From Mycobacteriales bacterium (GTDB lineage: Bacteria; Actinomycetota; Actinomycetes; BP-191), in assembly GCA_046590575.1 (NCBI GenBank), contig JBKJUS010000012.1, positions 24,222 to 88,221 of the forward strand: a stretch of 64,000 nt of DNA. Direction: 5' to 3'. The position numbers and the translations under genes were made by a program. The notes under the pieces are model-generated. The model was not told the DNA's origin, ran no database searches, and saw only the letters and a list, made by a program, of their open reading frames with translations. Positions 13,101 to 17,337 of this stretch are shown here, piece after piece (position 1 is the first letter of the stretch; each line of letters begins with the position of its first letter).

Positions 13101-13757
13101 TTAGAACAGTCGTGGCGTGGACGGCTCGATGCCGCGCAGGTCGTCGTAGTCCAGCGTCACGCACGTGATGCCGCGATCGGCAGCAAGGACCCGGGCCTGC
13201 GGGGTGAACTGTTGCGCCGCCAGCACTCCACGCACCGGCGCAAGCAGCGGGTCGAGGTTGAGCCGCTGCAGGTAGCGGGTGAGCTGCTCCACACCGTCGA
13301 TCTCGGCCCGACGCTTGATCTCGACGGCCACCCGCACGCCGGCGCCATCCCGGCAGAGCAGGTCGACCGGCCCGATGTCGGTCGGCTGCTCGCGGCGGAC
13401 CAGCGACCAGCCGTCGCCGAGGACTTCGCACCGGTCGGCGAGCAGCTCCTGCAGGTGCTTCTCGACGCCGTCCTTCTGCAGGCCGGGGTCGACGCCGAGC
13501 TCGTGGGTCGAGTCGTGCAGCACCTCTTCGATGGCGATGACTAGCTCCTCGCCGGCCTTGTTCACCACCCGCCAGACGCCATTCGATTCGGTCAACGTGC
13601 ACGGTGGGCTCATCCAGTTCAAGGGTTTATATCCGAACTCTGAGTGGATCGAGATCGACCCGTCGCCCTTGAAGATGATCAACCGGGTCGCCAGCGGCAA
13701 GTGCGTGCTAAGACGACCCTTGTAGTCGACCGAGCAGCGCGCGATGACCATCCTCAT
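13101..13757 (-). CDS. nucS: Mismatch-specific endonuclease NucS/EndoMS
   Basis: [49 protein letters not shown] motifs. Confidence 0.95.
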
Positions 13758-14038
13758 GCGCAAGACGGTAGGGCACCGTGGCCCGCGCCGATCGGATGGT
13801 CAGCCTTGCGGACGTTGAGCGCGTGGCACCCGGCCCTGGGTCACGCCACAGCGGTGGTCGGTGCCGCGATAGAGCCCCGGTAGGAGGTGGGGCTCCTTCT
13901 TGTGGAGCTCACCTCGGCGCCAGATCCAACGATCGCTGGACAACTACGTGCTGCATGCTTACCGTCACGCTCAGAGAGCGTCACGTAGGGTGTTGGTCGC
14001 CGGGGGGCGACGCCTGCGGCGCCTCGGAGAGCTGGCCC

Positions 14039-17000
14039 ATGCGTCGAGTGTTGAGCAGGTTCTCCGCAGCTGGAGTCGCCACCATGCTGATCGGCAGCTG
14101 GCTGGTCGTGACGCCGACTACTGCCTCGGCCGAGGCGACCATCGTCGTCGACACGACGGCGCCAGGCATCAACGAGTCAGACGGCAAGTGCTCGCTGGCC
14201 GAGGCGATCTCCTCGGCGAACTTCAATCTCAACGTGGCCATCAAGTCCAGCCCGCCGGACAGCTGGGTCACCACTGAGTGCCTGGCTGGGCACATCGGCG
14301 CGGACACCATCGTCCTGCCGGCCAGCGGGAGCTTCACCTTCAGCAGCGTCTACAGCGACCTCTACAACCCCATGGGGCCGACCGCCACGCCGATCATCTT
14401 CAGTCCCATCACGATCGTGGGCAACGGCGCGAAGCTCGAGCGCACCGGTACGACGCCGATGCGCGCCTTCGCCATCGGCTACGCCTACGTGGACGCAGAC
14501 CCCACCGCAGGTGAGGACATCGCCTACGGGACGGGTGAGCTGCTGCTGCAGAACGTGCACGTCAAGAACTTCTTCGCCGTCGGGGGCAACGGCGGGAAGA
14601 GCGCCGGCGGGGGGCTGGGAGCCGGCGGGGCCATCTACGTGCGTGACGCGACTCTCCGAGTCGAGTACAGCACGTTCGAAGGGAACCGGGCACAGGGCGG
14701 CCTCGGGGGCAGCGGCAGGAGCAGCCCCGGCGCCGGCGGCGGCGGCGGCGGCCTCGGGGGCAACGGCGGTTCCGGGACCGGGCAGGCGCACGACTTCTTC
14801 TCCTCGTCCGGGGGCGGCGGCGGCGGCGGTGCCCGCGGCGACGGTGGCAGCAGCCAGTCGACGGGCGCCTTCGGCCAGGTCCAGGGCGGGCATTTTGGCG
14901 GCGGGGGCGGTGGCACCGTGACCGACGGCGGCAGCGACAACGGGACGACCACCAGCCGCGCGGGCGGCCTGGCCTGCGGCGGTGAGGGCGGCGAGGCGTT
15001 CGAAGACGAGGACGGTGACAACGGCTGCGACGGTGGGGGCGGCGGCGGCGGCGAGCGGGTTTACGATGACCCCCTGTCCTTCGAACACGGCGCGGGCGGG
15101 AGGGGCGGCTACGGCGGCGGGGGCGGTGGGGGCGGCTATCACCTGCCGAACTCGCAGCGAGCCCCAGACATCGGGCCCGGCGGCAACGGCGGCTTCGGTG
15201 GCGGTGGTGGTGCCGGCGCGACCGGCGACGACCCGGGCCAGGGTGGCTTCGGCGCCGGCGGTGCCGGCGGCACGGACTCGCGCGGACCCGGCGGGACCTT
15301 CGGCGGCGACGGCGGCGAGACCGGGGACGGGACTGGGCCGGGTGGCGGAGGTGCCGGCCTCGGCGGCGCGATCTTCAGCGACAACGGTCGGGTGACCATC
15401 ATCAACAGCACGTTCACTGGCAACTCGGTGTCGCACGGTTTCGCCGGCACCGGCACAGGCACCGGCACAGGCAACGGCGGCGACGCCGGCGCGGCCGTCT
15501 TCGCCGTGGACGGTGACACCGCGATCAGCAGCTCGACCATCGTCGGCAACGAGAGCACGGGCTCCGGCGCGGGAGTGGTGGTCTACCGCTCGACGCGCAG
15601 TGGCTACACCGCGGGCCTCTGGATGGCGAACACCATCCTGGCCCGCAACGACGCCGGGACCGACGGCACGCAGGAGTGCTACACCCTCGGCGCCGTCACC
15701 GCATTCGGGACCGGGAACCTCTTCACCGACAACGGCAACTGCCTTGGCGAGGCCGTCGCCACGGACCCAGGGCTCGGCGGCCTGACGGTCGAGGTACCCA
15801 ACACCTCACCAGTGCTCGCCACCGGGGCGGGCAGCTCGGCGGTGGACGCCGGCGACACAACCCAGTGTGAGCCGTACGACCAGACCGGCTACGCCCGGCC
15901 GGTGGACTCCTGCGACATCGGGGCGTACGAGTACCGCGCTCCGTCCTCCGACCTGGCCGTCGTCACCAGCGCAGTCGGTACGGCGGTCGCCGGGCAGGAC
16001 GCGTCGTTCACAGTCGACGTGAGCAACGCCGGACCCACGACGGCGAGCTCACTCAGCCTGACGGACACCCTGCCGAGCGGGACGACGTACAAGTCCATGA
16101 GCGGTTCCGGCTTCAGCTGCACGGGCACCGGACCGGTCACCTGCACGAGCGGGTCGATGCCCGCCGGCGGGTCGACGCGGCTGACGTTGACGGTGACGCT
16201 GCCATCGTCCATGGCCAGCGGGACGTCACTGAAAAACGCGGTCAGCGTGTCGTCGGCGATCACTGACCCGGACACGACGGACAACGCGGCCGAGGTCACG
16301 ACGACCGTTGTCACCCGGGCTGACCTGGCGGCCACGGTCACCGGGCCGCTGGAACCGGTTGCGGGCTTGCCCGTCACCTATACGCTCGGGCTGGCGAACA
16401 ACGGACCCAGTGACTCAGTAGGGGCCACGATGACCGCCGCGGTCCCTACGGGGACGACGTTCACCTCGCTCACGGCACCCAGTGGCTGGACCTGCACCAG
16501 GCCGGCCGTCGGCAGCAATGGTCCGACCAGCGCCAGCTGCACGCAGACGATGGTCGCGACCGCGACCGCCAGCTTCACCCTCGTCGTACAGCTCCCGACG
16601 TCGGCAGCCGAGGGAGGCAACCTGTGCAGCAGCGTCGTGGCGTCGGCGACCACCACCGACCCGACCAGCAGCAACGACACGGCCCAGACGTGCGGCACCG
16701 TCGTCACCCGCGCCGACCTTCGGGTCGGCCAGACGGTCAGCACGACCGGCAGGCCGGGGAAGGGCACGGCAACCTTCGTTGTCCGGGTCACCAACGCAGG
16801 GCCGAGCGACAGCCAAGCCGTGGAACTGACTGCGTCGTCAGACCAGTTCATCGGTCCGCCGCCGTCGATGATCACCACCGCCGGCGCGACCTGCACCGTC
16901 AGCGGGTCGACGATCACCTGTACGTGGTCGGTCATCACGTCGGGTGCCGCCCCGCAGGTGACGGTCACGGTCCCGTGGCGGTCCTCGGTCGGTCAGGTCT

Positions 17001-17083
17001 GCGTGTCCACCCGCGTCACCGCCACGACGATTGACCCTGTCCCGACGAACAACACCGGCAGCACTTGCACAGCGAAGAAATAG
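14039..17083 (+). CDS. Large secreted surface protein: CSLREA-like N-terminus, Gly-rich region, choice-of-anchor-Q-like motif, three DUF11-type repeats
   Basis: Signal peptide; DGKCSLAEAI; GG-rich tract; DQTGYARP..CDIGAYE; repeated DL.V....N.GPS..A units. Confidence 0.85.
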   Translation: MRRVLSRFSAAGVATMLIGSWLVVTPTTASAEATIVVDTTAPGINESDGKCSLAEAISSANFNLNVAIKSSPPDSWVTTECLAGHIGADTIVLPASGSFTFSSVYSDLYNPMGPTATPIIFSPITIVGNGAKLERTGTTPMRAFAIGYAYVDADPTAGEDIAYGTGELLLQNVHVKNFFAVGGNGGKSAGGGLGAGGAIYVRDATLRVEYSTFEGNRAQGGLGGSGRSSPGAGGGGGGLGGNGGSGTGQAHDFFSSSGGGGGGGARGDGGSSQSTGAFGQVQGGHFGGGGGGTVTDGGSDNGTTTSRAGGLACGGEGGEAFEDEDGDNGCDGGGGGGGERVYDDPLSFEHGAGGRGGYGGGGGGGGYHLPNSQRAPDIGPGGNGGFGGGGGAGATGDDPGQGGFGAGGAGGTDSRGPGGTFGGDGGETGDGTGPGGGGAGLGGAIFSDNGRVTIINSTFTGNSVSHGFAGTGTGTGTGNGGDAGAAVFAVDGDTAISSSTIVGNESTGSGAGVVVYRSTRSGYTAGLWMANTILARNDAGTDGTQECYTLGAVTAFGTGNLFTDNGNCLGEAVATDPGLGGLTVEVPNTSPVLATGAGSSAVDAGDTTQCEPYDQTGYARPVDSCDIGAYEYRAPSSDLAVVTSAVGTAVAGQDASFTVDVSNAGPTTASSLSLTDTLPSGTTYKSMSGSGFSCTGTGPVTCTSGSMPAGGSTRLTLTVTLPSSMASGTSLKNAVSVSSAITDPDTTDNAAEVTTTVVTRADLAATVTGPLEPVAGLPVTYTLGLANNGPSDSVGATMTAAVPTGTTFTSLTAPSGWTCTRPAVGSNGPTSASCTQTMVATATASFTLVVQLPTSAAEGGNLCSSVVASATTTDPTSSNDTAQTCGTVVTRADLRVGQTVSTTGRPGKGTATFVVRVTNAGPSDSQAVELTASSDQFIGPPPSMITTAGATCTVSGSTITCTWSVITSGAAPQVTVTVPWRSSVGQVCVSTRVTATTIDPVPTNNTGSTCTAKK

Positions 17084-17120
17084 CTCCGGTTCCGACCCTA
17101 GATGCGTAGGGCAGCGTGAC

Positions 17121-17268
17121 TCAGTTGAGCGGCTTATAAGCCCGGTCATCGGCGTGCACCGCCACGGAGCCGTCGGCTTTGACCATGATCAGGCGCACTG
17201 CCGAGGGCAAAGTGAGCCGTCAGACGTCCGATGTAGTCGACGGTGCAACGAGCGATGACCAGACGCAT
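17121..17268 (-). pseudogene. nucS: Degenerate 5' fragment of a second nucS
   Basis: Translates [19 protein letters not shown](extra base at 17209-17211)[32 protein letters not shown]; similarity to nucS then ends. Confidence 0.9.
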
Positions 17269-17337
17269 GGCCGAGACGGCATAGCACGTGTCAGGTCACT
17301 GACAGTCATGCCGGCCGAACACCCTTATCGTCGAAGG

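Follow-up and report, generated by a model that had tools for sequence, protein, structure and literature searches.

We found that the mismatch-repair gene nucS in a Mycobacteriales genome carries a foreign 5′ end, and that the host's own 5′ end persists as a decayed stub upstream of it. The stretch of DNA analysed ("the window") is 64,000 nucleotides (nt) long, positions 24,222 to 88,221 of contig JBKJUS010000012.1, and belongs to a 3.42 Mb assembly in 222 contigs that is 95.6% complete (G000). NucS, also called EndoMS, is the non-canonical mismatch repair system that replaces MutS/MutL in Actinobacteria. Codons 1-47 of the working gene in the window are foreign and the remainder is native, and this one swap, at the same few bases, is repeated many times in separate lineages. 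We consider site-specific integration at nucS very probable, and the window locus is likely to be the relic of a site-specific integrative element, probably one with a large serine recombinase, crossing over at the TG of the Trp48/49 codon.

A native stub and a foreign working 5′ end

The genus comparison covers three genomes, two of which (G001 and G003) have nucS. Between the stub and G001, 131 of 144 nt are identical, and this similarity continues 28 nt upstream, while the 5′ end of the intact gene matches G001 at 100 and G003 at 102 of 141 nt and its 3′ part is 85% identical to both. A tree of 63 5′ parts places the stub beside G001 as its sister (100/97) and puts the intact 5′ end among five loci of another family (99/99), the support values being rough because the bootstrap had not converged; the intact 5′ end has 91% identity to a metagenome locus (L064). 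In the tree of 55 3′ parts, the intact gene falls with G001, G003 and two metagenome loci (100/98). G044, G050, G057 and G913, which are marked as unpublished, are present in the trees as background rows only; genomes with this mark also count in the search tallies, and none of the main claims depends on them. The change of history is abrupt along the gene: informative sites before the Trp codon favour the donor over the host by 11 to 1, and those after it favour the host by 46 to 6. The foreign end is one codon shorter between a His and the motif KPLNW, and we refer to this as the "short loop". The features of the locus are as follows, in window coordinates.

13101..13757 (−): intact chimeric nucS, 218 amino acids (aa), with Y12, N47, W48 and D132/E146/K148 kept; N-terminus aligned to TkoEndoMS (5GKE)
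13101..13614 (−): host-derived nucS 3′ part, 85% nt identity to G001 and G003, genus clade 100/98
13615..13616 (−): TG of the Trp48 codon, putative right crossover (attR core), placed by sequence brackets
13617..13757 (−): foreign nucS 5′ coding end, codons 1-47, short-loop type, 71-72% nt identity to the genus and 91% to L064
13765..13770 (−): TACCGT, presumed −10 box (leaderless) belonging to the incoming end
14039..17083 (+): cargo gene for a 1014-aa predicted secreted Gly-rich protein with three DUF11 repeats and a choice-of-anchor Q domain
17121..17268 (−): displaced native nucS 5′ end (stub), codons 1-48, 148 nt, with a +1 frameshift
17122..17123 (−): TG followed by A (giving TGA), putative left crossover (attL core), the same break base as in genome G411
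17276..17281 (−): presumed native −10 box, decayed; reads TGCCGT, against TACCGT in same-genus G001
17338..18696 (+): BNR-repeat gene lying outside the element, on the upstream side of the stub (open reading frame (ORF) and domain listing)

The stub has one extra T after codon 19 (run 17209-17211) and TGA at 17123-17121 instead of the Trp codon. Its 97 of 141 nt identical to the intact 5′ end, with a 3-nt indel, give a local alignment score of 94, with no score above 35 among 500 shuffles, and the similarity ends at AACTG. Relative to G001, the stub carries 12 synonymous differences, one non-synonymous difference and the frameshift, and TA has become TG in its presumed −10 box. With so few differences, the decay of the stub is recent relative to the split from G001, and it is visible in the presumed −10 box itself, which reads TACCGT in G001. 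An earlier note on this stretch had described the extra base and the TGA of the stub, the diverged homology of the two 5′ ends with an indel, and a possible decay of the stub's −10 box, and had proposed the displacement of the native 5′ end. All of these hold, the last through the position of the stub beside G001, and separate trees of the two halves of the intact gene, together with the informative sites, do give different histories.

The intact protein matches Pfam NucS_N and NucS_C and scores 360.8 bits with NCBIfam NF002876 (cut-off 252). The 64 nt upstream of the incoming start are 80% like those of locus L051 (E 2e-11). The two putative crossovers lie 3507 bp apart, and the cargo gene, on the opposite strand, is the only gene between the stub and the intact nucS, its stop codon being 38 nt from the left junction. 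The earlier note had taken this gene for a CSLREA/DUF11 gene of about 1000 aa. The single gene and its DUF11 repeats stand; the CSLREA label rests on a CSLAEA motif alone, since the CSLREA model had no match in the cargo protein at E ≤ 0.001. The cargo gene was not found in any of the five relatives searched, and its closest homologue is 63% identical. GC content does not flag the cargo as foreign, and its GC content at third codon positions (GC3; 900/1014) equals that of the host. The G000 genome has no third nucS copy, and the window has no tRNA and no integrase or recombinase gene. Contigs from two soil-metagenome runs, which are possibly the source data of the assembly itself, run through both junctions with an identical sequence (X1, 13470-13870 and 16877-17224; X2, 16806-17282).

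In the source family, nucS lies between pyruvate dehydrogenase genes and dnaB-rplI-ssb-rpsF (window 6499-10101 and 21963-25365), and in the other families fetched it stands beside murA/atp instead. The nucS-dnaB interval differs in all three genus members.

One crossover point in many lineages

The position of the switch can be read most closely in the family of G788 (78 genomes), which natively has KPLM before the Trp. Its seven short-loop members, whose nearest long-loop relatives are 87-97% identical in the 3′ part, and G309 read KPLN-W. In these eight events the Asn codon before the Trp is the donor's and the Ser/Thr codon two after the Trp is the host's, and the switch therefore lies within TGGATG. 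The donor-host bracket runs from −1 to +6, where the right-hand limit means that those bases follow the host, the donor proxies being themselves chimeras. In each of the 13 comparisons that were mapped, the change from donor to host occurs at the Trp codon. Furthermore, among the 13 stubs found within a contig, nine end no more than 16 nt past the point where the Trp codon begins, four end earlier and none later. The nine run as far as TG (G000 and G411), +4 (G237), +6 (L073 and G040), +8 to +9 (G349, G923 and G915) and +15 (L049). Short database proteins give a similar picture: 5 of 12 fetched (out of 62) leave NucS at the Trp or within two residues of it, as records that come with no genomic context. 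The last 10 codons before the Trp are shifted towards A/T in short-loop ends only (GC3 166/240 versus 680/720 and 363/390), as a site acting at the DNA level would produce. No clear inverted repeat was found by eye in the attachment site rebuilt from the two junctions of the window.

By eye, and weakly, the bases after the junction in the window (17098-17084, −) and in G237 (L099) share TCGGAACC and a nearby CCGGAGC.

A search for the short-loop pattern in GTDB contigs returned 16 loci, seven of them actinobacterial-type nucS and nine archaeal; in metagenomes, all 13 matches were short-loop nucS. At three of the seven actinobacterial-type loci a second 5′ end lies 1-2 kb upstream in the same orientation, each time with different cargo: a homocysteine S-methyltransferase, a pyridoxamine-oxidase-like gene and an MFS gene. 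A second 5′ end was found at one of the 13 metagenome loci, most of the others having less than 2.5 kb of upstream DNA. Collectively, 24 short-loop nucS genes were collected. On a tree of 135 3′ parts the short-loop state needs 20 label changes, of which at least 14 are forced by supported branches, and the short-loop genes do not cluster, because equally few changes were obtained in 44 of 500 shuffles. Nine short-loop genes have a long-loop relative that is 87-97% identical in the 3′ part and only 68-73% identical in codons 2-38. Each of two sub-types of the foreign end is present both in the window's genus and in the family of G788. The 171 nt upstream of the short-loop starts at L071 (2250-2422) and L073 (920-1090) are 85% alike in hosts of different families, despite coding ends of different sub-types.

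Seven of 16 short-loop genomes have a stub (G000, G040, G237, G309, G787, G788 and G789). Within the class, 401 genomes were sampled, with a nucS match in 358 and two or more matches in 10; stubs were found in 4 of 10 short-loop genomes versus 1 (G349) of 348 others, for part of which the loop length was read. The note had suggested that other genomes might hold a stub, cargo and replacement at nucS, and such genomes were found. In G237 the native stub lies 368 nt upstream of nucS, with about 220 nt and no gene between, and both the stub and the 3′ part pair with same-genus G349 (100/95 and 100/99). In G309, two stubs share a contig with the genes that natively lie upstream; the short-loop gene is on a second contig, next to the native downstream genes. 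The stub of G040 is located in an unrelated island, away from the nucS locus.

That island (L034:5600-17000, L110:3500-5240) contains, besides the decayed short-loop nucS 5′ end, a GIY-YIG gene, a methylase/helicase pair that by eye resembles type III restriction, a small resolvase and, further on, two large serine recombinases.

Several candidates were set aside. Among viral contigs, the N-terminal alignment gave one locus, a full-length phage NucS rather than an attachment site, and the short-loop pattern gave one chance match in the frame of another gene. The 16 and 5 records from plasmid and phage collections are full-gene matches by annotation or unannotated. Second nucS matches proved to be contig ends (G052, G937, G972), split or frameshifted single genes (G097, G906, G947, G059), weak chance matches (G084, G168) or two long copies that are not stubs (G269, G966). 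The two long copies per assembly, on contigs C3 and C5 of G966 and C57 and C180 of G269, reflect duplication or contamination.

The candidate recombinase and rival explanations

In G411 the stub lies at the native locus and breaks at TG|A, the same base as in the window. Starting 43 nt past it is a gene for a 517-aa protein with Resolvase, Recombinase and Zn-ribbon domains, which has 15 homologues that are 49-60% identical to it. Among 48 loci with distant serine recombinases, none had a nucS piece within about 1.5 kb except that of G411 itself.

The longest contig of one of these homologues (P0011) and that of P0021, a 47-aa short-loop N-terminus ending in KPLN, are both 1762 nt long; the two could be neighbours, or the agreement could be chance. 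Elsewhere in G000, contigs C151, C85 and C189 have two or three tyrosine recombinases side by side, which we take to be possible recombinase-in-trio elements.

We propose that an incoming circle would bring, beside its attachment site, a nucS promoter of its own together with codons 1-47. Recombination of the circle with nucS at the TG would rebuild a full-length gene and strand the native start as a stub that stops at TG|A. Genes for the integrase and for other mobility functions would later have been lost, likely by deletion, leaving one cargo gene and a fixed foreign N-terminus.

A number of observations weigh against such a relic of a serine-recombinase element. Nine of the 16 short-loop genomes have no stub, and none of 143 genomes of another actinobacterial class has one. 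Stubs ending just after the Trp also occur in G915 (L233:1009-1068) and G923 (L201:5702-5872), whose intact nucS have the long HSDTGGYKPLMW loop; mapped on the 3′-part tree, that type requires 15 changes and may represent an older wave of 5′ replacement. The exact break at TG is seen in only two of the nine stubs that reach the Trp, and the stub of L049 has 16 nt in common with its intact copy, which would be closer to a long core of the tyrosine type or to a later conversion. Although TG is the best dyad centre among about 590 positions in 33 long-loop genes, the margin is thin (4.48 versus 4.45 of 8). The G411 contig ends 716 nt past the recombinase, with intact nucS not assembled, and no locus was found that has the integrase and a short-loop end together. 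The G000 genome has neither a PF07508 gene nor a match to the G411 recombinase family, which extends to the whole genome the note's remark that no integrase is visible. Close members of that family were also not found in sets of 38, 401, 78 and 271 genomes, in viral contigs or in phages. Finally, contigs of four runs contain no excision joint. A joint of 13631 to 17164, at 85% likeness, was rejected since it belongs to another organism's nucS.

Part of this evidence would fit the same site-specific 5′ replacement carried out by another recombinase, for instance a tyrosine integrase with a longer core, the G411 element then being a separate user of the site that maybe does not rebuild nucS. The sequence shared past the junction varies from 2 to 16 nt among stubs, the serine recombinase is seen at one of 13 stub loci and its far end is not assembled, and G000 has 20 tyrosine-recombinase matches, none of them on the window's contig. 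However, no tyrosine integrase stands beside any stub in ORF listings read by eye, and G000 and G411 break at the same base, both creating TGA; we regard this alternative as rather improbable. It is very doubtful that the loci are instead intact cassettes without an integrase, each made of an attachment site, one cargo gene and a nucS 5′ end and moved in trans. The compact one-cargo builds in the window, L049 and L051, with a stop codon 0-40 nt from the stub, the gene-free 220 nt or so of G237 and the cargo that differs each time are what such cassettes would look like, but stop codons abutting the junction are also expected from deletion up to a useful gene. The frameshifts, substitutions and truncations in the stubs would spoil excision, G000 has no recombinase of the G411 family to move a cassette, and the same cassette was not found in two hosts.

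A mobile element could be dispensed with altogether if a transforming short-loop nucS and its neighbour gene had recombined by homologous or homology-facilitated illegitimate recombination anchored on KPLNWMSPP. Twelve of the 13 stub loci have no mobility gene, the stretch around the Trp is strongly conserved, and the cargo genes resemble ordinary chromosomal genes, that of the window with the GC3 of its host. Yet with the whole gene on offer the longer conserved 3′ blocks should take many of the crossovers, whereas 13 of 13 switch at the Trp, and both junctions would repeatedly have to fall in the same 16 nt. No lineage was found with a native full-length short-loop gene of these types, the 3′ parts lying in host clades, and G411 has a recombinase at its junction. 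The earlier note had left the choice between a relic and homology-facilitated recombination open; since the crossover is fixed and a serine recombinase follows the stub in G411, we favour the relic of a site-specific element, and give recombination of transforming DNA, if anything, even less credence than the cassettes. We give next to no probability to an old tandem duplication in which the native 5′ end was copied and then diverged, or to a chimera produced in assembly. The assembly is in 222 contigs, but the working 5′ end has 91% identity to a locus from another family, against 71-72% to its own genus, and contigs of two runs cross the junctions. The tandem duplicate, which the note had named as part of what would overturn its proposal, is thus ruled out by the 5′ tree and by these contigs.

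The exchanged module and comparison with known systems

The foreign loop has the archaeal length, aligning without a gap to 5GKE, and is one residue below the usual actinobacterial loop. Trp48 aligns with W77 of TkoEndoMS, and every named recognition (Y/N/W) and catalytic (D/E/K) residue of NucS is present in the chimeric protein. W77 stacks on the mismatched base, and the W49A mutant of Mycobacterium smegmatis, which corresponds to this Trp, is a mutator, as is Y12A (PMC11551767). The crossover codon is thus functionally constrained, and the replaced piece contains two of the three base-recognition residues (Y12 and N47). The foreign end is under purifying selection, with proportions of non-synonymous (pN) and synonymous (pS) differences of 0.02-0.10 and 0.32-0.53. 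Together with the retained Y12, N47 and W48, this suggests that the chimeric NucS is probably functional.

Short-loop NucS is also found outside these hosts. The archaeal NucS at L045, L047, L048, L050, L052, L053, L056, L057 and L059, which according to their record titles come mostly from Altiarchaeota, match the foreign ends in loop length and in the motif G-F-KPLNWM. A viral contig (L061:1033-1716) carries a full-length 227-aa short-loop NucS with both Pfam domains, beside a GMP-reductase-like gene, and viral NucS of this kind is a possible source pool for the short-loop ends. In the other actinobacterial class, one of the 143 genomes (G794; L248:343-996) has a short-loop nucS with HSEFGFRPLNW, much like the type of the window.

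Whether the elements merely use a codon that cannot drift, or tune host repair through two of the three recognition residues and the loop, is a question that these data raise. An unlikely but far-reaching answer would be that a serine-recombinase family has converged on mismatch repair, swaps an archaeal-length recognition module, thereby alters host repair (in the rate or spectrum of mutations, or in how far foreign DNA is tolerated) and leaves cassettes that are mobile in trans. In any case, whole-gene nucS trees mix two histories in the affected lineages, and the results point to a recombinase family with a natural site conserved across Actinomycetes.

The closest known layout is that of the mutS elements. 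These are described by Chu et al. (2017, PMC5296598) in Vibrio splendidus 12B01 and in Beta- and Gammaproteobacteria, with insertion at the mismatch-binding motif HTPMMQQ and with excision and a mutator effect demonstrated. As in the present case, the target there is a mismatch-repair gene with a conserved mismatch-binding motif near its start, the element brings a start and a promoter (at nucS, a presumed −10 box), an orphan native start upstream matches relatives, host and element trees disagree, and some elements are degraded (PMC5296598). The elements described here differ in that their hosts are Actinomycetes and that the swapped piece holds Y12 and N47 and changes the length of the loop. 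Their target is nucS, which places them outside the mutS family while they are similar in working, and the targeting is convergent because NucS is not homologous to MutS.

The elements at dusA and SXT use tyrosine integrases. Elements at dusA, and SXT at prfC, integrate in the 5′ end, where they install a new promoter and an N-terminal stretch that has diverged (for dusA, 61% identity across 35 residues; PMC8409611). The nucS case shares with them the 5′ end of a housekeeping gene with a replaced, diverged N-terminus (PMC8409611). It differs in target genes and hosts and in that the N-terminus of dusA keeps its length whereas that of nucS is one residue shorter.

The large serine recombinases such as Bxb1 and phiC31 resemble our case in the domain set of the G411 protein, in a conserved target gene and in a crossover compatible with a 2-bp core. 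The catalogue of Durrant et al. (PMC10083194) treats integration as disrupting the target gene, whereas nucS is rebuilt and the window is without a recombinase. The term "nucS" has no match in the catalogue text or in 8 supplementary files (PMC10083194), and "mobile", "prophage" and "integrase" are absent from a NucS review (PMC8228993). Listings from full-text searches contained no paper on elements in nucS, a result that does not extend to subscription papers or to the TIGER/Islander island database, which may include nucS targets. Replacement of the nucS 5′ end has a known layout, at a different target gene, and is convergent with the mutS elements: the same layout has been reached independently in a non-homologous repair system, through at least 14 separate events at one codon.

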